Positions 469 to 61,329 of a DNA stretch of 64,000 nt are shown here, in pieces. Made by a program: the position numbers and the translations under genes. The notes beneath the pieces were generated by a model. That model had not been told where the DNA came from, did no database searches, and saw nothing but the letters and a program-made list of their open reading frames with translations. Every line of letters starts with the position of its first letter. Within the stretch, counting starts at the first letter, position 1. Source of the DNA: an uncultured Chloroflexia bacterium. GTDB taxonomy: Bacteria > Chloroflexota > Limnocylindria > QHBO01. The stretch spans positions 170,226 to 234,225 of the forward strand of contig CAWJIR010000009.1 in the NCBI GenBank assembly GCA_963843015.1, read 5' to 3'.

Positions 469-689
469 GGTGATCGATGCTACCGCACAACTGCGCCGGA
501 AAAGCACGAGCGCCGGTGCCCGCCCAATGACACCGGCGCCCGAAGGAGGGAGGGTGGAGGAGAAATCCTTCCGGATCTCTGACTCGCGCGACGAAGATAG
601 GTCGGTCACGTGAAGGCACAATCCCGCCAATGTGAAGAAACCTGAACCTTTGCCCCACAATGTCTGACCGATGACATCTCGCAGCCGAT

Positions 690-1946: not shown

Positions 1947-1948
1947 CT

Positions 1949-4499: not shown

Positions 4500-4515
4500 G
4501 GACCGATGATAGGGG

Positions 4516-5625: not shown

Positions 5626-5742
5626 CGGACCCGGCCCAGGGATCGGGAGCGCCGGGCAGCGCTGCGGCGGGGTCGAACGGCATCGGCCCGATCCTACCCG
5701 GCACGTCGGCCGTCGCAGCCGCCTCCGCGCTACCATCGCGGC

Positions 5743-42164: not shown

Positions 42165-42940
42165 GTGCCACTCCCCGGGCTGACCTTCCTCGGTCACGCC
42201 ACGGTGCTCATCGAGCTCGGGGGGCTGCGGATCCTGACCGACCCCATCCTCGTCGACCGCCTGATGTTCCTGACCCGGGTCGTCCGTCCGGTCGAGCCCG
42301 TCGCTCTTCGCCGCGGTCGACCTCGTCCTCCTCAGCCACCTGCACATGGACCATTTCGATCGGCTCTCGCTGGCCCGCCTGGATTCCGAGCCAGAGCTCG
42401 TGGTCGGTCCCGGTGGGCGAGGCGCTCGCGCGACGGTGGGGCTGGACCCGGGTCACGGAGCTCGCGCCGGGGCAGTCGCACCGGGTCGGCGAGGTCACGG
42501 TCACGGCCCTGCCGGCCGCCCATCCCGGGTCACGGCCGCCGTTCGGGCCGCGCGGGACGGCCGTCGGCTACCTGCTCGAGTCGGGTGCGGCCCGCATCTA
42601 CTTCGCCGGCGACACGGACCTGTTCCCCGAGATGGCGACCATGCTGTCCGGGCGAGCTCGACGTGGCGCTGCTCCCGATCGGCGGCTGGGGGCCGCGGCT
42701 GGGCAGCGGCCACCTGGATCCGGCACGTGCGGTCGAGGCCGCGGCCCGAATCCAGCCGCGGTTCGCGGTGCCCATCCACTGGGGCACGCTGTGGCCATAC
42801 GGCCTGGATCGGATGTCACCCGGCCATCTCGACAGGCCCTCCAGCCGCGTTCGCCCGTGGCCTCGCCGAGCGGGAGGCGGAGATCGGTGCGCGAGCCTCT
42901 CATCGCCCTTCCCGGCGAGCGGGTACCCTTCATTCCCTGA
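42165..42940 (+). CDS. MBL-fold metallo-hydrolase (frameshifted)
   Basis: ...LTFLGHATVLIELGGLRILTDPILVDRL...VDLVLLSHLHMDHFD... then ...GYLLESGAARIYFAGDTDLFPEMA... then ...LPIGGWGPRLGSGHLDPARAVEAAARIQPRFAVPIHWGTLWP. The SHxHxDH motif is present. Confidence 0.6.
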
Positions 42941-42975
42941 TCCCCCCGGCCCCGACCCGAGGATTCCAGCACGTC

Positions 42976-45066
42976 ATGAGCTCCTGGTTCAGCCGTACGG
43001 CCGCCGCGTATCGCGCGCAGGCCCACGCCCTCCGTCGCCTCCGCCCGACCCCGCTCGGCCTGCTCGTTCGCGTCCTCCTATCCGTGGTTTCCGCGTGGTT
43101 GAGCCTGCTGATCACGATCGCCCTCGCGCCGGGCATCGAGCGGGAGCCGGGGACCTCGGTCCTGCTGGCGGTCGCCGTCATCGGGGCGGCGGACTTCCTC
43201 ATCCGGCCGCTCCTTCTGGCGGCCGTCCTGCCCATCGGCTTCATCGCGGTCTTCGCGGTCGGCTTCCTGTACCGCGCGGCTTCGTTCTTCTTCATCCTGC
43301 CGCTCCTCGGCTTCGATCTCGGCGGATTCGGGAGCGCGGTGGTGGGGGCCGGGATCTACGCCCTGGTCAGCACGATCTTCGGCGGCCTGGTGGGCATGAC
43401 CGACGACGAGTCGTACGGCCAGCGGGTCGTCAACCAGGTCATCAAGGACCAGGAGAAGGTTCCCCACAGCGACGTGCCCGGGGTGGTCGTGATCCAGGTC
43501 GACGGCCTCGCGTTCCCGCTCCTGGTGGCTCAGGTCCGCTCGGGCACCCTCTCCACGCTGTCGCGATGGATCCGATCAGGCTCGCACCGGATGATGGAGT
43601 ACACCGCCGACCTCCCGTCCCAGACCTCCACCGGGCAGGCCGGCCTGCTCCACGGCAACGCCGCCGGCATCCCCGCCTTCCGCTGGTACGAGAAGGAGCG
43701 GCGGCGAATGATGGTCTCCAACCGCCCCGCCGACGCCGCCGAGATCGAGGCCCGCCTCAGCGATGGCAACGGGCTCTTGGCCAACGGCGGCGCATCGATC
43801 GACAACATGTTCTCCGGCGACGCCACCCACGTCCGAATGGTGATGAGCAAGCTGAACAGCAACCTGGACAAGGCCGGCCGCGATCGGAGCATGTACTACT
43901 TCCTGCTCAACCCGTACAGCATCGGTCGGACCATCGTCCGCACCGCTCGGCGAGATCCTGAAGGAGCTGTACCAGGGCTGGCAGCAGCGGCGGCGGGGGA
44001 TCGAGCCGCGGATGCACCGCGGCCTGAAGTTCGCCGGCCTGCGGGCCACTACCAACGTCGTCCTCCGCGACCTGAACCACGCCCTCGTCGCCGAGCAGAT
44101 GCTGCGCGGGACGCCGGTGATGTACTGCGACTTCGTGGACTACGACGACATCGCCCATCACACCGGGCCGGAGCGGCAGGAAGCCCTCCAGTCGCTGGCC
44201 GGGATCGACCGCTCCATCGGTCGCCTGGAGCGGATGGTGCCCGACTGTCCGCGACCGTACCGCTTCGTGATCGTCTCCGACCATGGCCAGAGCCAGGGGG
44301 CGACGTTCCGCCAGCGATACGGGGTAGACGATCGAGGACTGGCTTCGCACCCGAATCGGCGCGGACGTCACGCGCACGGCGACCGCGCCGGTGGAGGACG
44401 CGGGTCGCCTCTCGACCGTCCTGACCGAGGCCAGCTCCGCCGACGGCGCAACTGCCGCCCTCAGCCGTCGCGCCCTCGAAGGCAGCATGGACGACGGCGC
44501 GGTCGAGCTGGGCGCGCTCGGTGACGAGGTGGCCGAGGAGCCGACCGGCGAGCTGCCCGATCTCGTCGTCTGCGCGTCGGGCAACCTGGGGCTGGTCTAC
44601 TTCGGGGTCGCCGAACATCGCATGTCGTTGCCCGAGATCGAGGCCGCCTTCCCGGGCATGATGGACGAGCTCGTCGCCCACGAAGGCATCGGCTTCGCGC
44701 TCGTCCGATCCGGGGACGGCCATCGCCCTGGCCATCGGCCCGAACGGCCGCCACGACCTGTCGGACGGGAGCGTGACCGGCGTCGATCCGGTCGCCCAGT
44801 TCGGCCCCGACGCACCCGACCAGCTGCGCCACCTCGACGGCATCGACCACGTCGGCGACCTTGTCCTGATCAGCCGGCTCGACACCGGCACCGACGAGGT
44901 GGCCGCCTTCGAGGAGCTCATCGGCAGCCACGGCGGGATGGGTGGATGGCAGACCCAGCCGTGCCTGGTCTATCCCGCGGATTGGCCGGCGCCCGATGGG
45001 CGCCTGATGGGCGCCCCGGCCGTCCACCGGCAGCTGAAGCGCTGGATCGCCGCCGAGCAGGGATAG
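42976..45066 (+). CDS. Fusion protein: N-terminal 4-TM holin-like (phage-holin-4/DUF360-type) domain + alkaline-phosphatase-superfamily phosphodiesterase/pyrophosphatase domain (frameshifted)
   Basis: Transmembrane region LLVRVLLSVVSAWLSLLITIALAPGI...VLLAVAVIGAADFLIRPLLLAAVLPIGFIAVFAVGFLYRAASFFFILPLL...AVVGAGIYALVSTIFGGLV. Then ...VVVIQVDGLAFPLL...EYTADLPSQTSTGQAGLLHGN (metal-ligand Thr/Ser region of the AlkP core) and ...YCDFVDYDDIAHHTGPE...FVIVSDHGQSQG.... Confidence 0.6.
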
Positions 45067-45073
45067 GGGGCCG

Positions 45074-46129
45074 GTGGGCATCTTCGACGGCGTCCTCGGC
45101 ATCTTCAGCCACGACCTGGGGATCGATCTCGGAACGGCCAACACCCTGGTCACCGTCCGCCATCGCGGGATCGTCATCAGCGAGCCGTCGGTGGTGGCCA
45201 TGGAGACGCGCTCGAAGCGGGTCCTCGCCATCGGCGCCGAGGCGAAGCGGATGGTCGGTCGGACGCCGGCCAACATCGTCGCCATCCGGCCCCTGCGCGA
45301 CGGGGTGATCAGCGACTTCGACGTGACCGAGCAGATGATCCGGTACTTCATCGAGAAGGTGCACGACCGCTACTTCCGGATCCCGCGGCCCCGGGTCCTG
45401 GTCGGCATCCCGTCCGGCGTGACCGAGGTCGAGAAGCGAGCGGTGCGCGACGCCACCCTCAATGCCCACGCCCGCTGGGCTCGTCTCATCGAGGAGCCGA
45501 TGGCCGCCGCCATCGGCGCCGGCCTGCCGGTCAGCGAGCCATCAGGGTCGCTCATCGTCGACATCGGAGGTGGAACCACCGAGGTTGCGGTCATCTCGCT
45601 CGGCGGCATCGTCGTCAGTCGATCGATCCGGATCGGCGGGGACGAGATGGACCAGGACATCGTCAACTTCGCCCGCCGCGAGTACAACCTGCTGATGGGC
45701 GAGCGGACGGCGGAGGAGATCAAGATCGCCGTCGGCTCGGCGTACCCCGACCTCGACCCGCGGACCGTGACCTTCCGCGGCCGCGACCTGCTGACCGGAC
45801 TCCCGCGCAGCGTGGAGGTGAGCAGCGACCAGATCCGTGAAGCGCTGGAGCCGTCCGTGGCCGCGATCATCCAGGCCATCCGCGACACGATCGAGGAAAC
45901 GCCGCCCGAACTGGTGGCGGACATCATGGACCAGGGGATCGTGCTGGCCGGTGGCGGCGCTCTGCTGGCCGGGCTCGACCGTCGGGTGGCCGAGACGACC
46001 CAGATGCCGGTCCACGTCGCTGATGATCCCCTGACCTGCGTCGTGCGCGGGACGGGCCGGGTGCTGGAAGAGCTCGACACCCTGGAGCGGGTGCTCATCA
46101 CCGAGCAGTACACCCGCGCCCCCCGATAG
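45074..46129 (+). CDS. mreB: Rod shape-determining protein MreB
   Basis: ...DLGIDLGTANTLVTVRHRGIVISEPSVVAME...IRPLRDGVISDFDVTEQMIRYFIEKV...LIEEPMAAAIGAGLPVSEPSGSLIVDIGGGTTEVAVISLGGIV...GIVLAGGGALLAGLDRRVAETTQMPVHVADDPLTCVVRGTGRVLEE is intact and colinear with MreB. Confidence 0.95.
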   Translation: MGIFDGVLGIFSHDLGIDLGTANTLVTVRHRGIVISEPSVVAMETRSKRVLAIGAEAKRMVGRTPANIVAIRPLRDGVISDFDVTEQMIRYFIEKVHDRYFRIPRPRVLVGIPSGVTEVEKRAVRDATLNAHARWARLIEEPMAAAIGAGLPVSEPSGSLIVDIGGGTTEVAVISLGGIVVSRSIRIGGDEMDQDIVNFARREYNLLMGERTAEEIKIAVGSAYPDLDPRTVTFRGRDLLTGLPRSVEVSSDQIREALEPSVAAIIQAIRDTIEETPPELVADIMDQGIVLAGGGALLAGLDRRVAETTQMPVHVADDPLTCVVRGTGRVLEELDTLERVLITEQYTRAPR

Positions 46130-46136
46130 GCCGGGC

Positions 46137-47018
46137 ATGCGCCTGTCCTCGCTGCAGCCTGGTCGCCACACCTCGAGCCCGCACCGCCGCACCGGGCATG
46201 GGATCTGGTGGGCCGTCCTGCTCCTCGTGTCGCTCGGACTGGTCGTCGTCTCGGGAACGGATCCTGCCCGGTCCGTCCAGGAGCTCGGCGCCCGGGCGAT
46301 GGCCCCGGTCCATGCCGCGGTCAGCAGCATCGGAAGGGGGATCGCCGACGTCGTCGGGACGATCGGCGCAATCGGTCAGCTCCGCGCCGAGAACGACGAG
46401 CTGCGGAGCACCCTGGCCGCCGCGGAGCAGCGCATCGCCGAGCTCCAGGAGGCGGCGCGCGAGAATGCGCGGCTGCGGGCCCTCCTCGGCCTGCGCGCCG
46501 TCCTGGGCTGGGATCTGCTGCCGGCACGAGTGGTCGCGGTGGGGACCGGGGCCCTGACCTGGGAGGTGGCGATCGACGCCGGTCGGGACGATGGCGTCGC
46601 GGTGGGCATGCCGGTGATCGGGGCCGCCCCGGGCGGCGGCGCGCTGGCCGGCATGGTCGTCGAGGCCCGCAGCGATCGGGCCATCGTTCTGCTCACCGTT
46701 GACCCGCGAAGTCGAGTCGTCGCCCGGGACCAGGAGACCGACGCGCTCGGCGTGGTCCAGGGCCAGCCGGGTGGTCAGCTGGTCATGACCCAGGTCGCCG
46801 TCACCGACGAAGCCGCGGTCGGCGACACGATCGTCACCGCCGGGCTGGAGATCGAAGGGGTGGCCGCCTCTCCGTACCCGGCGGGGCTGCTCATCGGAAC
46901 CGTATCCGCTCTCGAGACCGATGCGAACGGTCTGACCCGGACGGTGTTCGTCCGCCCGGCTCTGGATCCCCGTGCCGTCGAATGGCTGATGGTGGTTCGG
47001 TCCGCGACGATCGACTGA
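46137..47018 (+). CDS. mreC: Rod shape-determining protein MreC
   Basis: N-terminal transmembrane segment; coiled-coil segment LRAENDELRSTLAAAEQRIAELQEAARENARLRALLGL; C-terminal beta-domain ...GMPVIGAAPGGGALAGMVVEARSDRAIVLLTVDPRSRVVARDQETDALGVVQGQPGGQLVM...GLLIGTV. It follows mreB immediately. Confidence 0.85.
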   Translation: MRLSSLQPGRHTSSPHRRTGHGIWWAVLLLVSLGLVVVSGTDPARSVQELGARAMAPVHAAVSSIGRGIADVVGTIGAIGQLRAENDELRSTLAAAEQRIAELQEAARENARLRALLGLRAVLGWDLLPARVVAVGTGALTWEVAIDAGRDDGVAVGMPVIGAAPGGGALAGMVVEARSDRAIVLLTVDPRSRVVARDQETDALGVVQGQPGGQLVMTQVAVTDEAAVGDTIVTAGLEIEGVAASPYPAGLLIGTVSALETDANGLTRTVFVRPALDPRAVEWLMVVRSATID

Positions 47019-47173: not shown

Positions 47174-49477
47174 TTGCACGAGCGAACGCTGCTCAGTCCT
47201 TGGCGCCTGGCCCTCTTGCTTGCGGTCGCCTTTGCGCTCGCCGTAACCGCGATTCTCGGACCACTCCCGGTTCGTGCTGCGGCGACCCAGAAGGTGGTCG
47301 TCATCGTCGGCCCGGTGGGGGGCGGCTCGATCCAGACCAACTACCTCAACCGCGGCGAGCAGATCGCTGCCTCGGCCGAAGCCCGTGGGGCCACGGTCGT
47401 GCGCGTGTTCTCGCCGAACGCGACCTGGGCGGCGGCCCGTGCGGCGGCCAACGGGGCCAACATCATCGTCTACATCGGGCACGGCAGCGGCTACCCGAAC
47501 CCGTACGCCGCGAACAACCAGCCGGCCTACAACAACGGCTGGGGACTGAACAAGATCGCGGGCGCCGATTCCGCCGACCCGACGGGCCACGGCCACGGCA
47601 TCAACAGCCAGATGGTCTATTGCGGCGAGGCCGCGTTGCAAGGCCAGGCGCTGCCTGCCGGAACCGCCACCGCGGCCTACTGCTCGCCTGGGCCCATCAC
47701 GCCCGCGCCGGGCTTCGTGATGGTGTACTCGAACGCCTGCTACGCGCCGGGCGCCGGCGAGACGGAGGAGAGCACCCCGAGCAGCGAGGGGACGGCCCTC
47801 ACCCGCGTGAACTACTACTCGCGACCGATCCTCGCGCTCGGGGGCTCGTATTTCGCAAGTGACCTGGGCGCGCGTTCGGTGGTGGAGGCAATCCTCGACC
47901 ACCCGACCTCCAGCCTGGGCGACATCTTCGAGATGGGCACCGGCTATAGCCCGACTGCCATCCGCCACTTCCCGCACTGGTTTACCAGCGGCGCGGAGGC
48001 CTGGATCCAGAGGACCGTGGGCGTAGGTGGGCTCATGAGCTACTGGTACGCGTTCGCCGGGAACCCGAACCAGATGCCGCAGGCTGGCCCGCCCAACGCC
48101 GACTTCACCGCCTCGCCAACCGCCGGCCTGCTGCAGCTCACGGTCTCGTTCTTCAACGAGACCGCGACCTATGGTTCAACCACCTACACATGGGATTTTG
48201 ACGCCAACGGCTCGGTCGACTCCACCGCCCAGTCCCCGGTGTGGTCCTACCCCACGGCAGGCACCTACTCGGTGACGATGACGGCGACGAACAGCCTGGG
48301 CACCGATGTCGTGACCCGGACGAACTACATCACCGTTCGAACCCCGGTGCCGGGCACCTATGTCCCGCTCCCGCCCGCCCGCCTGCTCGACACGCGGGCG
48401 GGCAACGGCCTGAGTGGGGCGTTCAGCGCGAACGTGCCGCGGACGTTCCAGGTCGCGGGGCGGGGCGGAGTCCCGGCCAACGCGGTCGCTGTCACGGGCA
48501 ACCTGACGGTCACCAACCAGGGCTCGGCCGGCTACGCGTACCTGGGTCCCGACCCGGTCATCGGTCCGACCAGCTCGACCATCAACTTCCCCGCTGGTGA
48601 CACCCGGGCCAACGGCGTGACCGTGGCACTCGGCCCCGGCGGAACGCTGGCCGCAACGCTCGGTCCGGGAATGGCGGGCGGCGCCGATCTCCTGTTCGAC
48701 GTGACCGGCTACTTCCTGCCCGGCAGCGCGCAGGGGACCTACGTTCCGCTGGCCCCCGCCCGTCTGCTCGATACCCGTGATGGCACCGGCCTGAGCGGGC
48801 CGTTCGCCGCGAACACGCCGCGTGCCTTCCAGGTTGCCGGGCTCGGCGGCGTCCCGGCCGGTGCGGTGGCCGTGACCGGCAACCTGACCGTCACCGGACA
48901 GAGCGGCGGCGGCTATGTCTATCTCGGTCCCGATCAGGTCGCCAACCCCTCCAGCTCGACGCTGAACTTCCCGGCCGGCGACAGCCGTGCCAACGGTGTG
49001 ACTGTTGCGCTCGGGCCAGGGGGAACGCTGGCGGCCACGCTCGGCGTCCCGGGCACGACCCACCTCCTGTTCGACGTGACTGGCTACTTCGTGACCGACG
49101 GATCGGGCGCGACCTACGTCGCCCTCTCACCGTCTCGCCTGCTCGACACCCGGGTGGGCAACGGCCTGAGTGGGCCGTTCAGCGCGAACAACCCGCGGTC
49201 CTACCAGGTCCACGGCCGTGGCGGCGTGCCGGCCACTGCGGTGGCGGTCACCGGCAACCTGACGGTGACCGGCCAGAGCGGCGCGGGCTACACCTACCTT
49301 GGTCCGGATCCGGTCGCCAACCCGACCAGCTCGACCCTGAACTTCCCTGCCGGGGACACGCGGGCCAACGGGGCCACCGTGGCTCTGGGTGCGGGCGGGA
49401 CCCTGGCCGCGACCCTCGCCCTGACCGGAAGCACGCACCTCGTGTACGACGTGACCGGCTACTTCTACATGGACTGA
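47174..49477 (+). CDS. Secreted multidomain protein: putative clan-CD (gingipain/clostripain-like) cysteine peptidase domain + PKD domain + three diverged ~120-aa C-terminal repeats of unassigned type
   Basis: Signal peptide LLSPWRLALLLAVAFALAVTAILGPLPVRAAA (TTG start). N-domain with NIIVYIGHGSGYPNPY ... FVMVYSNACYAPGAG has the His-Gly and Ala-Cys dyad spacing typical of the caspase-fold clan CD. PKD-like segment WDFDANGSVDSTAQSPVWSYPTAGTYSVTMTATNSLGTDVVTRTNYITV. Three repeats each start TYVPL.P.RLLDTR.G.GLSG.F.AN.PR.FQV.G.GGVPA.AVAVTGNLTVT.QSG.GY.YLGPD....P.SST.NFPAGD.RANG.TVALG.GGTLAATL......LLFDVTGYF. Confidence 0.6.
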   Translation: MHERTLLSPWRLALLLAVAFALAVTAILGPLPVRAAATQKVVVIVGPVGGGSIQTNYLNRGEQIAASAEARGATVVRVFSPNATWAAARAAANGANIIVYIGHGSGYPNPYAANNQPAYNNGWGLNKIAGADSADPTGHGHGINSQMVYCGEAALQGQALPAGTATAAYCSPGPITPAPGFVMVYSNACYAPGAGETEESTPSSEGTALTRVNYYSRPILALGGSYFASDLGARSVVEAILDHPTSSLGDIFEMGTGYSPTAIRHFPHWFTSGAEAWIQRTVGVGGLMSYWYAFAGNPNQMPQAGPPNADFTASPTAGLLQLTVSFFNETATYGSTTYTWDFDANGSVDSTAQSPVWSYPTAGTYSVTMTATNSLGTDVVTRTNYITVRTPVPGTYVPLPPARLLDTRAGNGLSGAFSANVPRTFQVAGRGGVPANAVAVTGNLTVTNQGSAGYAYLGPDPVIGPTSSTINFPAGDTRANGVTVALGPGGTLAATLGPGMAGGADLLFDVTGYFLPGSAQGTYVPLAPARLLDTRDGTGLSGPFAANTPRAFQVAGLGGVPAGAVAVTGNLTVTGQSGGGYVYLGPDQVANPSSSTLNFPAGDSRANGVTVALGPGGTLAATLGVPGTTHLLFDVTGYFVTDGSGATYVALSPSRLLDTRVGNGLSGPFSANNPRSYQVHGRGGVPATAVAVTGNLTVTGQSGAGYTYLGPDPVANPTSSTLNFPAGDTRANGATVALGAGGTLAATLALTGSTHLVYDVTGYFYMD

Positions 49478-49605: not shown

Positions 49606-52600
49606 GTGAACCGCTTCAGGCTCCCCGCTCACTTCGCCCTCGCCGTTGTTCTGCTCATCGGTGCGCCGTCGAGCCTGTCACCGGCACTCGCGACCGAACC
49701 GACGACCGCCCGACCCGGCGCGTCTGGGACCGACTGGTCCATTCCGCCGGCTCTCCCCGACGGACCAATCACGCTGCCGAGCGGCGAGGTCCTGCCGCCG
49801 ATGCCCGATGAGTTCGAGGTCCCGGGCATCCAGGCCGAGATGCTCGCCCAGCATGCGGACGACGCGCCGACACTCGCAGCGGGCGCCCAACCCGGCGCGG
49901 CTGGCACCGGGTCTCCGAGCGTTCCCCCCGGCAACTCGACGGTCGCCAACCCAGAGCAGTTACTGGCGGCTCCAAGCGGCGGGTTCGCCGCATTGCCGAA
50001 CGGCCTGCGCAAGGAAGTGTTCGGGTTCCTGCCGTACTGGATGCTGGCCGATTCCAAGCTCCAGTGGATGCGCTACGACCTGGTGTCGACGATCGCGTAC
50101 TTCGGCGTGGCGGCCGGCAGCGATGGAACGCCTGGCGACGGCTTCGACGGGCTGGAACGGCTGGACATCGTCGGCCATGACCGGGGTCATCAACGCGGCC
50201 CATGCTCACGGCGTCCGGGTGGTGCTGACCGTGACGATGATGGCCTGGGATGGTGGCGCCGCCCAGGCCGCCCTCCTCGCCGACGCGGCTGCACGGGCTC
50301 GACTCGTCAACGCCATCGTGGCGGCCGTCCGGGATCGGAGCGCGGACGGGGTGAACCTCGACTTCGAGCCGGTCTACGTGCCGCAGCGGGACCAGTACAC
50401 GTCTTTCGTCCGGCAGCTCAAGGCGGCGCTCGTCGCGGCCGGCGTGGGGTCGTACCTGACGGTTTGCACGACCGGCGGAGCTGCGAGCTGGGCGACCGGC
50501 TATGACCTCGCGGGGCTCGTGGCCCCCGGCGCCGCCGACAGCATCTTCGTGATGGGCTACGACTACAGCTGGTCGGGCTCTGCGCGGGCGGGTGGCGTGG
50601 CGCCGATGGAGTCGCCGTACATGCTCGACGTCAGCCAGTCGGTCGATGACTACCTGCGCCGCGTGCCCGCCATCCAAGCTCATCTGGGGCGTTCCCTACT
50701 ACGGCCGAGCCTGGCGAACGACCTCCGACGCGCTGAACGCCGCGACCGTACCCGGCGCATCCGCGTCATCGGTGGCCTACTACTACGTCGGCAACCAGGT
50801 CCTGCCAGGCCCAGCATGGGCGCCGATGGGACGCGGTCGGCCAGGTGCCCTGGTTCGCGTACTACGACAGCGTTGCCGGATCGTGGGTCGAGGGCTACTA
50901 CGACGACGTCCAGTCCCTGGCGGTGAAATGGGACATGGTCAACCAGCGTGGCCTGGCGGGCACGGGGATCTGGGCCCTGCTCATGGACGAGGGCAGCAGC
51001 GACCTGTGGAACCTGCTCGCCACGAAGTTCGTCTCGGATGTCGCGCCGCCGACCGGCGGCATCGTGCCGCTGCCGGCGGGAACGGACGCCTCCGGCGTCG
51101 GCGTGTCCTGGCGCCACCTCGACATCGGCTCTGGGGTCGGTTCGTACACGGTGCAGGTTCGCGATCGCGCGGGCGGCGAATGGACGTCCTGGCAGACCGA
51201 TGTCAGCTGGACGTCGGCCCACTTCGTGGGGACCGAAGGCCATTCCTACGAGTTTCGGGTCTCGGCCGTGGATATGGTCGGCAACCGCCAGCCGTGGACG
51301 CCAGCGGCGCTCGACGTCAGCTCGAGCCTCCAGGTCGGCGGGTTCGCGGGGGTGAACGTCGGGGTCCTGAACGTCCGGTCCGGGACGGGCACGGGATTCG
51401 CCGTGCTCGACCAGCTGGCGGCGGGTGACCGGCTCGCGATTCTCGGCGGCCCGGTGCTGGCCGGCGGACTGCAGTGGTACTGGGTCCAGTTCGACTGGAC
51501 CGAATGGCCATCGTCGTCGTTCCCGCGGTATGGCTGGGCAGCCGCCGGCGACGCGAGTGGTCCCTTCCTCGTGCCGGCGCCGGCCCCGACGGTCACCACG
51601 ATCAGCCCAGCCATCTCCGGGTACGCCGTGAGTCCGCGGCGCATCTCGCCAAACGGGGACGGGACCGCCGAGAGCACCGCGGTCACCTTCTCGCTGGCCG
51701 CCGCGGCCAGCGATGCCCGCCTCGACGTGATCAATGGCGGCGGCACGGTGGTCGCGAGCCAGGCCCTCGGTCCCCTCGCACCCGGCACGCAAGCCGTTTC
51801 CTGGGATGGCCGCGCGGCCGGTGCCCCGGTCGCCGACGGTGTGTACCTGCTCCGCCTCACGGTGGTCGACGGTGCCGGGTCCCACGTCGCGCCGGTGGCG
51901 GGGGTCGACTGGAGCGCGCTGTCGACGTGGGGCGTCGTCGCGAGCGTGACGCCGCCGGGCGCGACCTACATCCCGCTCGCCCCCTCTCGCCTCCTCGACA
52001 CCCGGGTCGGCAACGGCCTGGCCGGGACGTTCGCGGCGGGCACCCCGCGCACGTTCCAGGTCGCCGGCCGGGGCGGGGTCCCGGCCAACGCGGTGGGCGT
52101 GACCGGCACCCTGACCGCCACCGGCTCGAGCGGCCCCGGCTTCGTGTTCCTCGGTCCCGATCCGACGGCCACCCCGACGAGCTCGACCTTGAACGTGCCG
52201 GCGGGGGACACCCGGGCGGGCGGGGTGACGGTGGCCCTCGGCCCGGGCGGGACCCTGAGCGCGACCTTCGGCTACACCGGGACGACCCACCTCCTGTTCG
52301 ACGTGACCGGCTACTTCGTGCCCGATGCCAGCGGCGCGACCTACATCCCGCTCGCCCCCTCTCGCCTCCTCGACACCCGGGTCGGCAACGGCCTGTCCGG
52401 GACGTTCGCGGCGGGCACCCCGCGCACGTTCCAGGTCGCCGGCCGGGGCGGGGTCCCGGCCAACGCGGTGGGCGTGACCGGCACCCTGACCGCCACCGGC
52501 TCGAGCGGCCCCGGCTTCGTGTTCCTCGGTCCCGATCCGACGGCCACCCCGACGAGCTCGACCTTGAACGTGCCGGCGGGGGACACCCGGGCGGGCGGGG

Positions 52601-53076
52601 TGACGGTGGCCCTCGGCCCGGGCGGGACCTTGAGCGCGACCTTCGGCTACACCGGGACGACCCACCTCCTGTTCGACGTGACCGGCTACTTCGTGCCCGA
52701 TGCCAGCGGCGCGACCTACATCCCGCTCGCCCCCTCTCGCCTCCTCGACACCCGGGTCGGCAACGGCCTGTCCGGGACGTTCGCGGCGGGCACCCCGCGC
52801 ACGTTCCAGGTCGCCGGCCGGGGCGGGGTCCCGGCCAACGCGGTGGGCGTGACCGGCACCCTGACCGCCACCGGCTCGAGCGGCCCCGGCTTCGTGTTCC
52901 TCGGTCCCGATCCGACGGCCACCCCGACGAGCTCGACCTTGAACGTGCCGGCGGGGGACACCCGGGCGGGCGGGGTGACGGTGGCCCTCGGCCCGGGCGG
53001 GACCCTGAGCGCGACCTTCGGCTACACCGGGACGACCCACCTCCTGTTCGACGTGACCGGCTACTTCGTGCCCTGA
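49606..53076 (+). CDS. Secreted multidomain protein: GH18-like domain + Fn3-like + SH3b-like + FlgD-Ig-like domains + three near-identical 125-aa C-terminal repeats of the same type as in the preceding gene (GH18 part frameshifted)
   Basis: Signal peptide MNRFRLPAHFALAVVLLIGAPSSLSPALA. GH18-like segment ...EVFGFLPYWMLAD...YDLVSTIAYFG... ...VNAAHAHGVRVVLTV...ADGVNLDFEPV (D-x-x-N-x-D-x-E variant of the GH18 catalytic motif) ...IFVMGYDYSW...YYGRAW... ...GIWALLMDEGS. Then VSWRHLDIGSGVGSYTVQVRD...EWTSWQTDVSWTSAHFVGTEGHSYEFRVSAVDMVGNRQ (Fn3-like); NVRSGTGTGFAVLDQLAAGDRLAILGG.VLAGGLQWYWVQ (SH3b-like); ISPNGDGTAESTAVTFSLAAAASDARLDVINGGGTVV...VYLLRLTVVDGAGS (FlgD-Ig-like); then 3 x ([124 protein letters not shown]). 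Confidence 0.6.
51961..53073 (+). repeat. Three head-to-tail copies of a 375-bp coding unit (A 51961-52335, B 52336-52710, C 52711-53073), essentially identical at the DNA level
   Basis: Exact 375-nt periodicity is visible, e.g. gcgacctacatcccgctcgccccctctcgcctcctcgacacccgggtcggcaacggcctg recurs at 51961, 52336 and 52711. I found only two single-base differences among copies (gcc vs tcc in ggcctgGccggg of copy A; ctg vs ttg in gggaccCtgagc of copy B). The identical 81-aa antisense ORFs at 51966, 52341 and 52716 are a by-product of this repeat. Confidence 0.9.
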
Positions 53077-53972
53077 CCACCCTCCAGGACACGACTCCAG
53101 AGCTCCCACATCGCGTCGCGGTAGCGCTGGACGCTGAACCGCGCCGCCGTAGCCGCGACCAGCGCAGGATCGTAGTCGGGCACCACCGCGAGCGCTGCCT
53201 CGTAGGCGCCATCGGTGACGAGGGACCCATTCACCCCATCGGTCACGATTTCCCGCAGCCCTCCGACCGCGGCGGCGACCACCCAGCGCCCTGACGCGAT
53301 CGCCTCCGCGGCGACGAGGCCGTAGGGCTCGACCCTCGACGGAACGAGCACGACGTCGTGGCTCTCCATCAGGGCCGGCACCTCGGCGGGGTCGACCTCC
53401 CGCAGTCCTGGCCCGACGAGCGTATCCGCCAGTCTGGCTGCCACGTCCACCCCTTTCTCCGCCACGTCCCCTCCGAGGTAGAGGACGCGGCGAGGGGACG
53501 GCCGCGGCGTGGGGCGAAAGCGCGCGAGGTCGATACCGGGCGGAATGACTTCCGCCCGACGCCCGAGGCGCTCGACGAGCGCAGCGGTCTCGGGCGAATT
53601 CGCGACCACGGCTGCAGCCGACCGGATCACGGTGCGCGCCAGCCATCGATGGACCGCGGAACGCTGGGCCGCGCTGCGAACGTCCGCGCCATGGGCGTAG
53701 ACGACCAGCGGCAGGCCGCGCAGGCGCGCGGCCAGCAGGGCTGGTGGCCCGCTGGCGAGGACGAAGTGCGCTTCCACACCGTCGAAACGGCCACGGGCGG
53801 TCATCGCCTCCCAGGCCAGCCGCGCGAACCGTCCCCAACGCGAGCCATCGTACCGATGCGGCGCCACGACGGTAGCCCGCAGCCTGGGATCGGCGAGCCG
53901 ATCTCGGACGAATACACCTGCGGCCGGCCGGTCAGCGGTCGGGTAGCGGGTCGTCACCACCAGCAGGCGCAT
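53061..53972 (-). CDS. Glycosyltransferase family 4 (GT-B, GT1-like)
   Basis: [29 protein letters not shown]... ...[15 protein letters not shown]...[48 protein letters not shown] carries the EX7E-type motif. Its stop is convergent with, and overlaps, the end of the 49606 gene. Confidence 0.7.
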
Positions 53973-54007
53973 GGAGCCCGACGGTAGCACGGGTAGAATC
54001 GCGGGCA

Positions 54008-54742
54008 ATGTCGACGATCGCCCCGCCGCGCCGTGCCGACGGACGCCTGCCGAACCAGCTGCGCCCGGTGAAGATCGTGCCCGACTACCTGAAGTTCGCC
54101 GAGGGCTCGGCCCTGATTCGGGTGGGCGATACGCGCGTCCTGTGTGCGGCCACACTCGAGGATCGCGTCCCGCCCTTCCTGCGGGGGAAGGGCACCGGCT
54201 GGGTGACCGCCGAGTACAGCATGCTGCCGCGCGCCGGCACCGAGCGGTCGCAGCGTGAGGCGAGCAAAGGCCGGATCGGCGGCCGGACCCACGAGATCCA
54301 GCGCCTGATCGGACGCTCCCTGCGTTCGGTGGTGGACATGGCCGGCCTCGGCGAACGGAGCCTGACCCTCGACTGCGACGTCATCCAGGCCGATGGCGGG
54401 ACCCGCACCGCGTCCATCACCGGCGCCTACGTGGCCCTCGCCCGCGCCCTCCACAAGTACGGCATGGAGCGGCTGCTGACCGGCCAGGTGGCGGCCGTCA
54501 GCGTCGGGATGTCGGCGAGCGGCCTCCTCCTCGACCTCGACTACGCCGAGGACTCGACCGCGGGGGTGGACTTCAACGTCGTGATGCTCGACGACGGGCG
54601 GTTCGTCGAGATCCAGGGCACCGCGGAGCACATCCCGTTCAGCTCGGACCAGATGACCGAGATGGTCTCCCTCGCCTCCGCCGGCATCCGGCAGCTGTAC
54701 GAGCTCCAGCGCGAGGCGATTGCGGCTCCCGCCGCCGAGTGA
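54008..54742 (+). CDS. rph: Ribonuclease PH
   Basis: ...[101 protein letters not shown]...[27 protein letters not shown] is intact. Confidence 0.9.
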
Positions 54743-55375
54743 GCCGCCTCCTGGTCGCCACCCACAACCCGGGCAAGCTGGCCGAGTTCCAGCGGCTGCT
54801 CAGCGGGCTCGGTGCCGAGGTCGTCAGCGCCGCGGACCTGGGCCTCGACCTCGACGTTCCCGAGCCCCATGACACGTACGCCGAGAACGCCGCCGACAAG
54901 GCGATCGCCTTCTGCCGCGCATCGGGCGAGATCACCCTGGCCGACGACTCGGGCATCGAGGTCGCGGCCCTGGACTGGGGCCCTGGCGTCCGGTCGGCGC
55001 GGTTCGCGGGACCGGATCGGATCACCGGGGCGGACCTGCTCCTCAAACGGCTGGCCGGCGTCGAGCGACCGACGGGCCCGGATGGTCTGCTGGCTTGCGC
55101 TGGCCCAGCCGTCCGACGAGCGGGCCGGCGAACCGACGGTCGAGCTCTTCGCCGGCATGGTCGAGGGCCGCTGTCGCGGATCAGCGGCGGGGGAGCGGCG
55201 GCTTCGGCTACGACCCGGTCTTCGAGCTCCCGGACGGCCGGACCACCGCCGAGCTCGACGACGACGGCAAGGATCTGGTCTCGCACCGGGGACTGGCGGT
55301 CGCGGCGGCCATGCCACGCCTCCGAGAGTTGGTCGCGCGCCACGCTAGAATGCCCGCCATAGCGGAGGACGCATG
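54739..55375 (+). CDS. rdgB: dITP/XTP pyrophosphatase (Ham1 family), frameshifted
   Basis: [91 protein letters not shown]... then ...[10 protein letters not shown].. and ...[39 protein letters not shown] in other frames. Its start overlaps the rph stop. Confidence 0.8.
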
Positions 55376-55977
55376 AACGAGGCCTCGCCCGTGCGCGTCC
55401 ACCCCACCGCCGATGTCTCCGCCGAGGCGAGCATCGGCGCCGGCACCAGCATCTGGAACCAGGCCCAGGTCCGCGAGCGTGCCCGGATCGGGGTGGGCTG
55501 CGTGATCGGCAAGAACGTGTACGTGGACTTCGACGTCGTGGTCGGCGACCGGGTCAAGATCCAGAACAATGCGTCGCTCTACCACGGCGTCACCGTCGAG
55601 GACGGCGTGTTCATCGGTCCGCATGTGTGCTTCACGAACGACCGCCTGCCGCGGGCGGTGAACCCCGATGGATCGGCCAAGACCGACGACGACTGGGAAG
55701 TCGGCCCCATCCGCGTCCGCACCGGTGCGGCCGTGGGGGCCTCGACGCGTCGTCGTTCCGGGCGTGACGATCGGCCGATGGGCGCTGGTGGGTGCCGGCA
55801 GCGTGGTGACCGCCGACGTCGCCGACTACGCGCTCGTGGTCGGCAACCCCGCGCGCCGGATCGGCAGCGCCTGCCCGTGCGGCGAGCCGCTCCGCGACGG
55901 GCCGGACGGGACCGCGTTCCGCGGCGCGTGCCCCAGCTGCGGCCGCCCCTTCCCGCCGCCGGAGGATGCGCTGTGAA
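55373..55977 (+). CDS. Left-handed beta-helix (hexapeptide) sugar N-acetyltransferase, WbpD-like; one frameshift
   Basis: VHPTADVSAEASIGAGTSIWNQAQVRERARIGVGCVIGKNVYVDFDVVVGDRVKIQNNASLYHGVTVEDGVFIGPHVCFTND shows hexapeptide repeats. The C-terminus ...VVPGVTIGRWALVGAGSVVTADVADYALVVGNPARRIG... follows. Confidence 0.65.
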
Positions 55978-57075
55978 GGTCGCTCTCCGTGGTTGGCGCC
56001 CGGCCGCAGTTCGTGAAGGCCGCTCCGGTCAGCCGCCAGCTGCGCACCCGCCATCGCGAAATCCTGGTGCATACCGGGCAGCACTACGACGACGCGATGA
56101 GTGACGTCTTCTTCCGAGACCTCGGCCTGCCGCCGCCCGACCGCGATCTCGGGGTCGGCAGCGGGTCGCACGCGACCCAGACGGCCGAGATGCTGCGTCG
56201 GCTCGAGCCGGTGCTGGTCGATGAGCGTCCTGACGTCGTCCTGCTCTACGGCGACACGAACTCGACCCTGGCCGGCGCCCTGGCGGCCGCCAAGCTCAGC
56301 GACCTGGCCGAGCAACGACCCCTGCTCGCCCACGTAGAGGCCGGTCTCCGCTCATTCAACCCATCCATGCCCGAGGAACGGAACCGGATCGTGGCTGACC
56401 ACCTCTCCGACCTCCTCCTGGCGCCGACCCCGCCAGCCATGGCGAACCTGGCCCGCGAGGGCCTGGCCGATCGGGCCACGCTGGTCGGAGACGTGATGGT
56501 CGACGCGATGGACGCCGCCGTCGAACGGGCGCCCGGCGCGCTGCCACCGGAAGCGCAGGATGCCCCGGGATACGTGCTCCTGACCCTGCATCGGCCGTCG
56601 AACGTCGACGATCCGGTGCGGCTCGGCGCCTGGCTCGCCGCCGCGGCACCAGCCGGACCGGTCGTCTTCCCGGTCCATCCCCGGACGCGCGCGGTGCTCG
56701 ACCGGGCTGGGGTGGCGGTCCCGAGCGGCGGTGACGCTCATGGAGCCGGTCGGCTACCTCACCATGATTGCCCTCGAGCGTGGCGCTCGGGTGATCGCCA
56801 CCGACTCGGGAGGCGTTCAGAAGGAGGCCTACCTGGCCGGCGTTCCCTGCGTGACCCTGCGAAGCGAGACCGAATGGGTCGAGACCATCGAGGCCGGGTG
56901 GAACCGCCTGGCCCCCAACCCCTCGGACCTCGGTCCGGCCCTGGTCGAGGCCGCCGCCACGCCGTCTTCGTTGCCGCGTCCCGCTCTGTATGGGGATGGA
57001 CATGCGGCCGGGCGGATCGTGGATTCCCTCGAGCGGCTGGCGGCTCACCGCGAAGCGGCACCGGTGGCCTCGTGA
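55974..57075 (+). CDS. UDP-N-acetylglucosamine(-uronate) 2-epimerase, non-hydrolysing (WecB/WbpI-like); one frameshift
   Basis: ...[68 protein letters not shown]...[23 protein letters not shown]...[35 protein letters not shown]...[61 protein letters not shown]. Confidence 0.8.
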
Positions 57076-58183
57076 TCCCGATCGCGCAGCCCCAGATCGG
57101 CCCCGAGGAGCAGGCCCTCGTGGCGGAGACGCTCGCGTCCGGCTCGCTGGCCCAGGGCCCCCGCGTCCGCGAGCTCGAGGAGCGCTTCGCGGCCCTGGTC
57201 GGCGTGTCCGCACGCGGTCGCCACCTCCTCGGGGACGACGGCGCTCCATCTCGCCCTGCTGGCCGCCGGCGTCGGGCCCGAGCGACGAGGTCATCACCGT
57301 CCCGTTCACCTTCATGGCCAGCGGCACGAGCATTCTCTATGTCGGGGCCCGGCCGGTCTTCGTCGACGTCGACGCCCGCTCGTTCATGGCGGTCCCGGAT
57401 CGCGATCGAGGCCGCCATCACGCCCCGGACGAAGGCGATCATGCCGGTCAGCCTCTACGGCCAGCCCGCCGACATGCCCGCCATCGAGGCCATCGCCGAG
57501 CAGCACGGCCTGGCGCTCATCGAGGACGCGGCCCAGACCCATGGGGCCTCCATCGACGGACGCGCGTCGGGGAGCTTCGGACAGGGCGTGTTCAGCTTCT
57601 ACCCGACCAAGAACATGACCACCGGCGAGGGCGGCATGATCACGACCGCCGATGGCGCGCATCTCCGAGTGGGCGCGCCTTCGCCGCGAGCACGGGATGA
57701 AGGTGCGCTACCACCACGACGTGCTCGGCTACAACTTCCGGATGAGCGATATCCACGCGGCCATCGGGCTGGCGCAGCTCGACAAGCTGGCCGGCTTCAA
57801 CGACCGCCGGATCGCGACCGCCGCCCGCTACGAGGCCGAGCTCCGCGGCGTGGTCACGCCATGGGTCCGGCCCGGGACGGTCCACGTCTTCCACCAGTAC
57901 ACCATTCGCGTCCTCAAGCGCGACGCGTTCGTCGAGCGCGCTCCGCGAGCGGGGCGTGGGCACCGGGGTCTACTACCCGATCCCGCTGCATCGGCAGAAG
58001 CCGTTCATCGAGCTCGGCTATGGCGACCAGTCGTTCCCGGTCAGCGAGCAGCTGTGCGAGGAGGTCGTCTCCATCCCGGTCCATCCGGGCCTGAGCGACG
58101 CGGACGTGGACACGGTGATCGAGGCCGTGAACGCGGTCGCCACCGAGCTCGGGTCGCATCCGGAGAGCCGGGTCGCGGTATGA
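57072..58183 (+). CDS. DegT/DnrJ/EryC1/StrS-family PLP sugar aminotransferase (WbpE-like), frameshifted several times
   Basis: ...[43 protein letters not shown]...[37 protein letters not shown]...[71 protein letters not shown]...[27 protein letters not shown]...[11 protein letters not shown].... The active-site Lys context is FYPTKN. Confidence 0.8.
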
Positions 58184-59193
58184 GCGGCAGCAGGGCGGGA
58201 GGACCGTCGGCGCGGGCCGCCGTCATCGGCCTCGGGATGATGGGCGCCAACCATGCCCGGGTCCTGAACGAGCTCCCCGAGGTGGACCTCGTGGCGGTGG
58301 CGGATCTCGATCCAGAGGCCGTGGCTCGCGCCACCGCGGGGCGCTCGGCCCGGGGGTACACCGATCCGTCGGCGCTCCTGGCCAACGAGCACCCGGATCT
58401 CGTCGTGGTCGCGGTCCCGACCTCGCTCCACCTGGAGACGACGGTCGAGGCCCTGAGCAGCGGCGCGCACGTCCTGGTCGAGAAGCCGATTGCCGCGACC
58501 CGGAGCGAAGCCGAGGCGATGATCGCGGCCGCCGAGACAGCCGGCCGCATGCTCACCGTCGGCCACATCGAGCGCTTCAACCCGGCCATCCGGGAGCTCA
58601 GCCGACGCCTCGACGCCGGCGAGCTGGGCCGGGTCTTCCAGGTCCGGGCCTCGCGGCTCGGGCCTTTCCCGGCGCGCGTCCGCGACGTCGGGGTCGTCGT
58701 CGACCTCGCTCCCCATGACCTGGACATCATGCGGCTGCTCCTCCATTCGGAGCCGATCCGGATCTACGCCGAGACCGAGCAGCGGATCCACACCGACCAC
58801 GAGGACCTGTTCACCGGGCTGCTGAAGTTCGAGTCCGGAGCGATCGGGCTGCTCGAGATCAACTGGCTGACGCCGACGAAGGTCCGGAAGCTGAGCGTGA
58901 CCGGTGAACGCGGGATGTACGAGGCCGACTACCTGACCCAGGATCTCGTGTTCTACGCCAATCCCGACCAGGTCCTGGTCGCCGAAGGGGAGATGACGCG
59001 GCGCGCGGTCCAGCGCCGGGAGCCGCTCGCGGTGGAGCTGTCGGAGTTCGTCTCCGCCATTCGCCGGGGAGGACCGCCCCCGGTCGACCCCCGGGATGCG
59101 CTGATTGCCATGCTCCTGGCGCGGGCCATGGTGGACTCCGCATTGCGCGGCATCGTCATCGGCGCCGAGGACCTGAGACCGATCCTGGCATGA
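58180..59193 (+). CDS. Gfo/Idh/MocA-family NAD-dependent sugar 3-dehydrogenase (WbpB-like)
   Basis: ...AAVIGLGMMGANHARVLNELPEVDLVAVADLDPEAVARA...VVVAVPTSLHLETTVEALSSGAHVLVEKPIAATRSEAEAMIAAAETAGRMLTVGHIERFNPAIREL... is intact (~337 aa). Confidence 0.75.
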   Translation: MSGSRAGGPSARAAVIGLGMMGANHARVLNELPEVDLVAVADLDPEAVARATAGRSARGYTDPSALLANEHPDLVVVAVPTSLHLETTVEALSSGAHVLVEKPIAATRSEAEAMIAAAETAGRMLTVGHIERFNPAIRELSRRLDAGELGRVFQVRASRLGPFPARVRDVGVVVDLAPHDLDIMRLLLHSEPIRIYAETEQRIHTDHEDLFTGLLKFESGAIGLLEINWLTPTKVRKLSVTGERGMYEADYLTQDLVFYANPDQVLVAEGEMTRRAVQRREPLAVELSEFVSAIRRGGPPPVDPRDALIAMLLARAMVDSALRGIVIGAEDLRPILA

Positions 59194-60465
59194 GGATTGC
59201 CGTTGTCGGGCTTGGGCACATCGGCCTTCCCCTGGCCGTGCAGTACGCGAGCCGCGGCCACGAGGTCATCGGCTGCGACCTGGACGCCCGTGTGGTCGAC
59301 GCCATCAACCGCGGGGAGTCTCCGCACGACGACGAGGCCGAGGTCAGCGAGCAGGTCCCGGCGCTCGTCCGCGAGGGCCGTCTGCGGGCCACCACCGATG
59401 ACGCTGCCGGTGTCCGCGACGCGGAGGTGGTCGTCGTCATCGTGCCGGTCGTCGTGGACGAGGCGCGCCAGGTGGACTTCTCCCAGATCGACGCCGCCAC
59501 CCGTGACCTGGCCCGTGGCCTGTCAGCGGGCACGCTCGTCATTTTCGAGACGACGCTTCCGATCGGCACCACCCGCGATCGGCTGGGCCCGATGCTCGAA
59601 GCCGGATCCGGCCTCCAGGTTGGCCGCGACCTCCAGCTCGCCTTCTCGCCCGAGCGGGTCCTGGTTGGCCGCGTTCTGCTCGACCTGCGGCGCTACCCGA
59701 AGGTCGTCGGTGGGCTGAGCCCGGAGGCGACCGAGCGTGCGGTCGCGTTCTACACCGCCGTCCTCGAGCCGGGAACCGAGATTCGCGCCATGGCCAGTGT
59801 CGAAGCCGCCGAGATGACGAAGCTGGCCGAGACCACCTACCGCGATGTGAACATCGCCCTGGCCAACGAGTTCGCCCAGGTGGCGGACCGCCATGGGATC
59901 GACGTCACCGAGATCATCGCGGCCGCGAACTCCCAGCCATACAGCCACATCCATCAGCCCGGTGTCGGGGTGGGCGGCCATTGCATCCCGGTATATCCCC
60001 ACCTGCTGTTCCACGACGAGCCGACCATGCGCATCCCGCCTCTGGCCCGTGCCGTGAATGACGGCATGGCGGCCTACGCCGTCGGCCACCTCGCCGAGGC
60101 GCTCGGACCGCTGGACGGCGTCGCGGTGCTCGTCCTGGGCATCGGTTACCGAGGAGACGTTCGCGAGGACTTCTTCAGCAGCGCCCTGCTGCTGCGCGAG
60201 GCGCTGGTGGCAGCCGGCGCCACGGTGCACGGCCACGACCCCTACTTCGACGCCGAGCACCTTCTGCGGCGCGGATTCGTCCCGTACGACTTCGCGGCCC
60301 CGGCCCCGGTTCGCGCCGCCATCCTCCAGGCGGCTCACACGGCCTATCAGCGATCTCGATCCGGCCGCGATCCCCGGCCTCGAGGTCCTCGTCGACGGAC
60401 GGAATGCGATGAATCGGGAGCGCATCGAGGCAGCCGGCGTCCGCTACCTCGGAGTCGGCCGCTGA
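59190..60465 (+). CDS. UDP-N-acetyl-D-glucosamine/mannosamine 6-dehydrogenase (nucleotide-sugar dehydrogenase, WbpA/WecC-like); C-terminal frameshift
   Basis: MRIAVVGLGHIGLPLAVQYASRGHEVIGCDLD (Rossmann fold) ...LVIFETTLPIGTTRD...FSPERVLVGRVLLDLRRYPKVVGG...EMTKLAETTYRDVNIALANEFA...GVGVGGHCIPVYP (catalytic Cys)...VLVLGIGYRGDVREDFFSSA... Confidence 0.8.
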
Positions 60466-61253: not shown

Positions 61254-61329
61254 AGGTATCGGGTACCATCCGCGCTCGCCCGCCCAGTTCCCTTGTTGAT
61301 CGCGCCTGCCCGGCGCTGACTGGAGCCCG

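Follow-up and report, generated by a model that had tools for sequence, protein, structure and literature searches.

The window analysed here is a 64,000-nucleotide stretch of contig CAWJIR010000009.1 (positions 170,226 to 234,225 of the forward strand; assembly GCA_963843015.1) from an uncultured Chloroflexia bacterium. It contains two adjacent genes, which we call gene 1 and gene 2, whose products each end in a triplet of tandem units of the same kind. The two triplets lie 2.5 kb apart; that of gene 1 has diverged, whereas the units of gene 2 are near-identical even at the DNA level, and the arrangement is alike in at least two lineages. We describe the gene-2 array, the large protein family to which its unit belongs, and the processes that may have made, or kept, its units alike.

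Gene 2 and its repeat array

Read through its frame breaks, gene 2 encodes a signal peptide followed by GH18, fn3, SH3_3 and FlgD_ig domains and then the three units (coordinates are collected in Table 1). The Pfam matches are strongest for GH18 (PF00704; 60.9 bits against a cut-off of 29.6, in the middle frame piece) and FlgD_ig (41.9 bits), and weaker for fn3 and SH3_3. The pieces on either side of the GH18 match fit the adjoining profile positions, and PF00704 is present in full-length gene-2 orthologues. The GH18 motif D-x-x-D-x-D-x-E reads D-G-V-N-L-D-F-E in gene 2, with the D-x-E core kept and the middle Asp replaced by Asn. The open reading frame (ORF) called at 50845-53076 (743 aa) is 100% identical to the database protein P0385.

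Tandem Repeats Finder (TRF) detected an array at 51958-53073 with a period of 375 bp, 3.0 copies, 99% matches, 0% indels and a score of 2218. We then aligned the copies and read their bases directly, which revealed exactly two differences and no indels among the three. The first single-nucleotide polymorphism (SNP) is a G at 52021 in copy A, where copies B and C have T (52396 and 52771), and it exchanges Ala for Ser; the second is a T at 52630 in copy B, the other two copies having C (52255 and 53005), and is a synonymous Leu change (CTG/TTG). The first-pass annotation, which was made by reading the letters and translations of the window, had described a threefold 375-bp repeat with about two SNPs, one of them an Ala/Ser change in copy A and the other synonymous in copy B, and the base reading confirms this. 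Copy C is 366 bp long, being without the 9-bp Asp-Ala-Ser linker, and the stop codon TGA (53074-53076) follows it directly.

The same annotation had called for a comparison of synonymous and non-synonymous change between the units of the two genes. By Nei-Gojobori counts, the gene-2 units differ by only one synonymous and one non-synonymous change, while those of gene 1 have a synonymous divergence (dS) of 0.63-0.83 and a ratio of non-synonymous to synonymous divergence (dN/dS) of 0.18-0.28. The identity of the gene-1 units, which had been put at 60-70% of amino acids, is in fact 74-78% at the amino-acid level and 75-77% at the nucleotide level. A six-frame search of the 64-kb window with the unit profile found no further copies beyond genes 1 and 2. 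Chance cannot yield 375-bp units at 99.5% identity.

Frame breaks and assembly quality

Within its GH18 part, gene 2 has three changes of frame, located near 50131, near 50668 and within 50800-50834. As GC3 frame plots (G+C content at third codon positions) and a crude gene caller proved too noisy for counting frameshifts, we replaced them with tblastn against intact syntenic orthologues. One reference was L010 (GCA_036556745.1), a contig from a metagenome-assembled genome (MAG) that is syntenic with the window and has intact genes. Both L010 and the intact 1,162-aa gene-2 orthologue P0488 align collinearly with gene 2 through frames 2, 3, 1 and 2 in turn. Judged against L010, Ham1 has two shifts (about 55060-55170), the hexapeptide transferase gene has one (about 55740) and the UDP-GlcNAc 2-epimerase gene has one (about 56725), whereas mreB, mreC, gene 1, GT4 and RNase PH are intact. 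Pfam matches show that DegT is split as well, with one part in the ORF 55989-58094 and another in the ORF 57652-59193. Altogether, at least seven frame-breaking indels fall within about 8 kb (49606-57600) by comparison with intact syntenic orthologues, and several long ORFs in this region are chimeras of adjoining genes.

Two other loci are central to what follows. L005 (ENA ERZ25039478) is syntenic with the window, and L007 is a strain variant of L005 from a different sample, 98.7% identical to it over 4 kb; compared with L007, L005 has two indels. We judged the window, L005 and L007 to be the three long-read assemblies among the contigs compared, and the window looks like an indel-prone, unpolished assembly of this type. 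Indel errors of the assembly are the likeliest cause of the three frame breaks in GH18, because nearby housekeeping genes are broken in the same way. We considered gene 2 as a pseudogene and rejected this as the main reading, since Ham1, the hexapeptide transferase, the UDP-GlcNAc 2-epimerase and DegT are likewise broken within 8 kb.

An imperfect consensus, to which the many frame-breaking indels testify, also raises the thought that the array itself is an artefact of assembly or polishing, with units that are truly diverged or differently numbered having been made identical by a consensus from misplaced reads. We regard this as very improbable. The threefold near-identical structure recurs in L005 and L007, which come from other samples, and the units of a further locus, L009 (JGI 3300052992), are 100% identical; long reads with anchors in the unique flanks can easily cross an array of 1.1 kb; and there are no indels among the copies, though indels are this assembly's mode of error. 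The array is real and the count of three probably right, and more than three copies in the window are unlikely. The warning in the first-pass annotation that such repeats are liable to collapse was justified, mainly for the assemblies of relatives (one or two units, and a duplication in L009 described below) and less so for the window.

Unit identity in related loci

In L005, mreB and mreC are followed by a gene-1 orthologue, whose triplet is diverged, and then by a gene-2 orthologue, whose array consists of 3.0 copies of 381 bp at 99%, has two SNPs and abuts the stop codon. L007 carries an intact 1,162-aa gene with three units, so that the count is three in all three long-read loci. The gene-2 units of the window and L005 are 70-72% identical to one another, whereas within each gene they are 99-100% identical; elsewhere, the non-repeat parts of the two loci share 59-68% and the C-terminal part of MreB 95%. 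In unit trees built from five syntenic loci with 300 bootstraps, orthologous gene-2 units group in only four of the 300 trees. Inspection of the translations showed that a Pro-Asp-Ala-Ser linker is common to the window and L005 lineages. Since this linker would not be expected in a single-unit gene, a multi-unit array probably predates the split of the two lineages and would have been homogenised since.

The six units of L005 and L007 have four variable sites among them. At site 205, units B and C of L007 have G and all the others C, a pattern that is the expected footprint of transfer from unit to unit. Outside the repeat, L005 and L007 differ at 44 sites in 2,874 bp, compared with five in the 1,128-bp repeat, so that divergence in the repeat is lower by a factor of about 3.5 than in the remainder of the gene; constraint, recent exchange between strains or polishing could explain this.

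Across the family, the identity of units within a protein forms a continuum from 0.4 to 1.0 with a median of 0.67 (320 triplets). Identities of at least 0.95 are found in 17 of the 320 (about 5%), in proteins of differing architecture that include the gene-1 type (P0441, P0473 and P0428). The earlier suggestion of a recent expansion or conversion confined to one gene can be kept as far as homogenisation is concerned, given L005, L007 and the shared variant, and is not supported in the words "one gene only", given these three proteins. In the unit trees, gene-1 units A and C of L005 and L008 (JGI 3300055273) each pair at 100% bootstrap, so positional orthology has been kept in these old triplets. 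Units B and C of L013 group at 94%, a case of partial homogenisation. The window's own three gene-1 units show weak signs, in these trees, of what may be an older homogenisation, grouping together at only 54%. Positional orthology is too weak to be followed family-wide, with an excess of same-position identity of only 1-3 points, and for this reason the five syntenic loci were used.

Gene-2 orthologues with other C-terminal ends

Some gene-2 orthologues show fewer units or none. L009 shows two units, and L008 and L010 show one each, but the arrays of these contigs may be collapsed; in L010 (7000-7560), the unit accompanies a Big_5 domain. Eight orthologues on JGI metagenome contigs (L011-L018), with a core of GH18, fn3, SH3 and FlgD_ig that is 54-62% identical, lack the unit altogether and end in Big_5 plus another repeat, which is unnamed, about 85-95 aa long, marked by the motif G-x-W-A-G-Y-W and present in two or four copies. 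The C-terminal part of gene 2 is therefore a cassette exchanged between lineages. This fits a role in targeting or anchoring, and it also keeps alive the alternative of recent acquisition discussed next. A scan of genome contigs with the non-repeat part of gene 2 gave only weak FlgD_ig matches in unrelated MAGs (L001-L004).

The L009 contig starts inside the end of a unit and contains, at 1-6201, a direct repeat of 3,164 bp at 100% identity with a period of 3,037 bp, which covers the whole gene-2 orthologue and a spacer. This looks like a graph-loop artefact of assembly caused by identical units, the other possibility being a very recent tandem duplication of the whole gene.

The identity of the units might simply reflect youth: a single unit would have been acquired and then triplicated very recently, independently in the window and L005/L007 lineages. 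The single-unit orthologues in L008 and L010, which lie in the interior of their contigs, are what would be expected, as is the exchangeability of the C-terminal module seen in the eight orthologues without the unit and in L010. Furthermore, old, diverged triplets in distant orthologues imply that homogeneity is specific to lineages. We nevertheless judge such a recent birth unlikely. It needs two independent expansions that both halted at exactly three, and the Pro-Asp-Ala-Ser linker, absent from the single-unit gene, would have to arise twice. The variant common to two units of L007 indicates exchange between existing units. Finally, L008, L009 and L010 look like short-read assemblies (a status inferred from record names), in which near-identical units are expected to collapse.

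A widespread family of C-terminal triplets

No Pfam family matches the 125-aa unit at E<=0.1, nor does any NCBIfam model, and a profile search against PDB sequences gave only chance matches to nanobodies. A profile built from 23 units and searched against 1.84 billion proteins recovered 28,233 cluster representatives at E<=1e-3; at E<=1e-10 the number was 18,670. The nearest named relatives come from MAGs of Chloroflexota, Candidatus Limnocylindria and Limnocylindrales. Among 365 relatives whose units were counted, 338 (93%) have three; six units are present in nine proteins and nine units in a single one, and the remaining 17 have one, two, four or five. In a subset of 226 proteins with three full units, the triplet ends no more than five residues from the C-terminus in 211. 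The partner domains include fn3, PKD, SpoIID, GH18, amidase_2 (PF01510), M14 and S8 peptidases, CAP and FlgD_ig. Exactly three units in tandem are canonical for the family, and they usually occupy the extreme C-terminus of a secreted protein with several domains.

Several annotations carried by relatives did not survive inspection. The label "ecotin" is spurious, as the match to NCBIfam NF002987 reaches only 22.3 bits where the cut-off is 162, and we rejected Crystallin, lambda-integrase-N and GerPA, which come from precomputed Pfam lists, as sub-threshold noise on the repeat. JGI names triplet proteins (P0298, P0301, P0302, P0348 and others) "serine protease inhibitor ecotin" or "YoaK membrane protein". 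In the proteins of the window, too, Crystallin and ecotin matches have low scores and cover short stretches of the repeat. We take the remaining labels of relatives to be noise of a like kind, and misleading as annotation.

Predicted structure

AlphaFold2 models the single unit as a nine-strand, jelly-roll-like beta sandwich (predicted local distance difference test, pLDDT, 87.6) and the 376-aa triplet with a pLDDT of 96.2 and a predicted template modelling score (pTM) of 0.92. The three units are thus predicted to make up a single rigid body, unlike beads on a string. The best fold match of the single unit in the PDB is the trimeric Bd2133 fibre tip, at E 2e-3 and a template modelling (TM) score of 0.56, which is weak. 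Further weak matches include the BC2L-C N-terminal lectin, the KHP40 trimeric cement protein and carbohydrate-binding modules, and several of these folds are trimeric jelly rolls. Among viral models, the triplet matched a BclA-C-terminal-domain protein (TMq 0.48) and a C1q-domain protein (TMq 0.21). From the models and these matches together we infer that the triplet may be a single-chain pseudo-trimer.

Is copy number variable?

The first-pass annotation had proposed that the number of units varies through slipped-strand or RecA-mediated exchange and tunes the length or avidity of a surface protein. As a contingency locus of this kind, the array would have good material, for 375-bp repeats at 99.5% identity are good substrates for recombination, and orthologues with one or two units exist. 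In addition, relatives with two, four or five units have much higher unit identity than three-unit proteins (Mann-Whitney p = 5e-6), and two-unit and three-unit proteins differ likewise at an identity of at least 0.94 (Fisher p = 0.002). Counts of one, two or four are almost confined to arrays of near-identical units. The deviating proteins include P0276 and P0470, apparently complete four-unit proteins, which are therefore not the products of collapse.

Against this stand the near-constancy of three among relatives, with six, a multiple of three, as the commonest exception; the count of three in the window, L005 and L007; the predicted rigid body; and the requirement of the analogous CWB2 system for all three of its repeats (PMC4973711). 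The array is also hemmed in by its stop codon and an overlapping convergent gene. We consider a contingency locus quite improbable. What can be retained of the proposal is the enrichment of near-identical units among relatives with two, four or five of them, while copy number as a variable trait fits poorly with 338 of 365 relatives and with the structural prediction. Unequal exchange probably does occur once units are near-identical, and deviations from three are then rare and probably selected against; some of the one- and two-unit records are probably short-read collapses.

Proposed explanation

The explanation that we favour, and hold with somewhat more confidence than doubt, is that gene 2 ends in a conserved C-terminal triple module with an anchoring role, whose units are homogenised by recombination under a constraint on copy number, and that the GH18 frame breaks are errors. 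The gene-2 units would be kept near-identical by recombination between them, either through gene conversion or through unequal exchange followed by selection back to three. Family-wide, homogenisation would be episodic, leaving some triplets old and with position-specific orthology, some partly homogenised and about 5% near-identical.

Several points weigh against this explanation. The two SNPs of the window could be consensus errors, as the assembly is error-prone, and the grouping of all the window's units together is supported by only 47-54% of bootstraps. Most of the distant GH18-type orthologues have diverged triplets (0.41-0.56), and homogenisation is therefore not intrinsic to gene 2. 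Persistent conversion is not fully separable from two independent recent events, the long-read-like assemblies coming from two lineages. The single units of L008 and L010 may be a genuine state of the gene, ancestral or derived, and not a product of collapse. A search of metagenome contigs for a hidden multi-unit array, by the exact pattern of unit end, linker and unit start from L008, gave no matches, which is uninformative in that short junction contigs may be lacking. On the structural side, the fold matches of the unit are weak even at their best, the whole triplet has no PDB match above a TM score of 0.25, and the pseudo-threefold symmetry is drawn from the pTM and from the trimeric nature of those weak matches.

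The function that we propose is put forward with less conviction than homogenisation. The module may bind or anchor to a polymer of the cell envelope, and would thereby retain or target enzymes such as the GH18 hydrolase at the cell surface. This is suggested by the secreted nature of the proteins, the cell-wall-type partner enzymes, the position beside mreBC and beside genes for sugar nucleotides and glycosyltransferases, the count of three and the swapping of C-terminal cassettes.

Going one step further, we tentatively suggest, as a possibility that we hold with more doubt than confidence, that this is an undescribed C-terminal module of very wide occurrence, with about 28,000 clusters at 50% identity and a prominent place in the soil Chloroflexota of the class Limnocylindria, that forms a C1q/TNF-like pseudo-trimeric head and represents, next to SLH and CWB2, a third three-repeat anchor of independent origin. 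If so, the head would anchor or target dozens of secreted enzymes to an envelope polymer, and its units, in contrast to those of SLH and CWB2, would tolerate identity and be periodically reset to it, giving a threefold-symmetric ligand site.

Gene 1 and the genomic neighbourhood

The gene order is mreB, mreC, gene 1, gene 2, a convergent GT4-type glycosyltransferase gene, RNase PH, Ham1, hexapeptide transferase, epimerase and DegT (Table 1). The full order from mreB to DegT is kept in L010, and that of the first four genes in L005. The 3' end of the GT4 gene overlaps the end of gene 2, so that the array is closely confined at its 3' side.

Table 1. Features of the window, with the evidence for each
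Feature	Position	Strand	Evidence
mreB	45074-46129	+	Pfam MreB_Mbl, 481.7 bits
mreC	46137-47018	+	Pfam MreC, 99 bits; gene 1 is next downstream
Gene 1, 767 aa (P0415)	47174..49477	+	Translation, Pfam, unit profile
Gene-1 units	48356-48736, 48737-49111, 49112-49474	+	Unit profile; TRF, 75% nucleotide matches over 48356-49474
Gene 2, about 1,157 codons if read through	49606..53076	+	Three-frame translation, Pfam, tblastn
Gene 2, repeat copy A, 375 bp (125 codons)	51958..52332	+	TRF, alignment, base check; unit profile match 51946-52323, E 2.6e-61
Gene 2, repeat copy B, 375 bp	52333..52707	+	TRF, alignment, unit profile, base check
Gene 2, repeat copy C, 366 bp	52708..53073	+	TRF, alignment, unit profile, base check
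GT4-type glycosyltransferase, convergent	53064..53972	-	tblastn with L010 GT4 protein, 70.6% identity over 303 aa; L010 Pfam labels

The product of gene 1 starts with a signal peptide and an N-terminal domain of about 300 aa, which are followed by a PKD domain and then by the diverged triplet. The N-terminal domain has no Pfam, NCBIfam or PDB sequence match. A part of it (47282-48100, about 270 aa) is 66-68% conserved in the L005 and L010 orthologues, and the domain holds the stretches IVYIGHGSG and VYSNACYAPG, which look similar to the His and Cys motifs found in peptidases of clan CD (caspase/gingipain-like).

The region 53064-61253 forms an envelope polysaccharide cluster with GT4 on the minus strand, a hexapeptide acyltransferase, UDP-GlcNAc 2-epimerase, a DegT-type aminotransferase, GFO/IDH/MocA, a UDP-glucose/GDP-mannose dehydrogenase and GT2; RNase PH and Ham1 are interspersed in it. 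The product of this cluster could be the polymer bound by the triplet. Upstream of mreB, the stretch 42346-44524 holds a 692-aa ORF with Phage_holin_4_2 (4-TMS, four transmembrane segments) at residues 242-344 and, in a different frame at 44012-44524, a fragment of a type I phosphodiesterase that covers only profile positions 158-225; both are probably further frame-shifted genes. At the other end, the overlapping ORFs 61300-62541 and 62327-63085 each carry a PPIC-type rotamase domain, and 61300-63085 may be one SurA/PrsA-like gene split by a frameshift.

Significance

Short-read MAGs of relatives may mis-assemble gene 2, yielding one or two units or spurious duplications, and in this way place truncated architectures in protein catalogues. 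The locus offers a clean case from nature of concerted evolution at a fixed copy number, in which rates of conversion and selection on repeat number are measurable from long-read population data. Additionally, the domain is carried by hydrolases of peptidoglycan type and by proteases in a soil lineage that is abundant but almost uncultured. Should it indeed be a cell-wall anchor, it would give new insight into the envelope of Limnocylindria and could be used for surface display or to isolate the ligand polymer by pull-down.

Comparison with known systems

SLH units are short and helical, whereas the unit described here is a 125-aa all-beta sandwich in its predicted structure, has no match to the SLH profile (PF00395) and forms a triplet that is C-terminal. 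SLH units within a protein are, moreover, diverged, unlike the near-identical units of gene 2. The likeness would lie in the architecture: in the SLH triplets of Bacillus anthracis Sap and Paenibacillus alvei SpaA, three tandem units form one pseudo-trimeric body (PMC4973711, PMC6081394), and the triplet described here may do so too. SLH-domain trimers bind a cell-wall polymer (PMC6081394). Here, as with SLH, the triplet is joined to many secreted enzymes and surface proteins in a monoderm-type lineage, and it lies beside envelope polysaccharide genes. The polymer bound by SLH is a pyruvylated secondary cell-wall polymer, and the gene context here comprises GT4, UDP-GlcNAc 2-epimerase, DegT, UDP-glucose dehydrogenase and GT2.

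In the CWB2 system of Clostridioides difficile, the authors proposed that the three repeats form one pseudo-trimeric binding structure, as reported for SLH motifs (PMC4973711). CWB2 and the module described here are alike in being shared by large paralogous families that include peptidoglycan hydrolases and proteases, and in having a triplet that makes up one structure, again a prediction in the present case (PMC4973711). Unlike CWB2 (PF04122), to which the unit has no profile match and whose repeats are about 27% identical and not interchangeable, the units here can be 99-100% identical, which suggests that position-specific differences between units are not needed.

In its topology the predicted all-beta sandwich resembles C1q/TNF domains, the BclA C-terminal domain, the Bd2133 tip and the BC2L-C lectin, which act as trimers around a threefold axis. 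The resemblance is a weak one, with TM scores of 0.56 or less and an identity of about 12%. Three separate chains make up the homotrimers of those proteins, whereas here three domains stand on one chain, and there is no collagen-like or coiled-coil stalk.

The near-identity of long in-frame tandem repeats, maintained through inter-repeat recombination, is also familiar from the alpha C/Rib-type proteins of Gram-positive cocci, in which the repeats are independent domains and their number varies widely between strains. In contrast, the number here stays at three, and in the predicted structure the units pack against one another. The phenomenon is thus of a known kind, the concerted evolution of tandem domain repeats, met here under a fixed number of three and in a large, unmodelled protein family.

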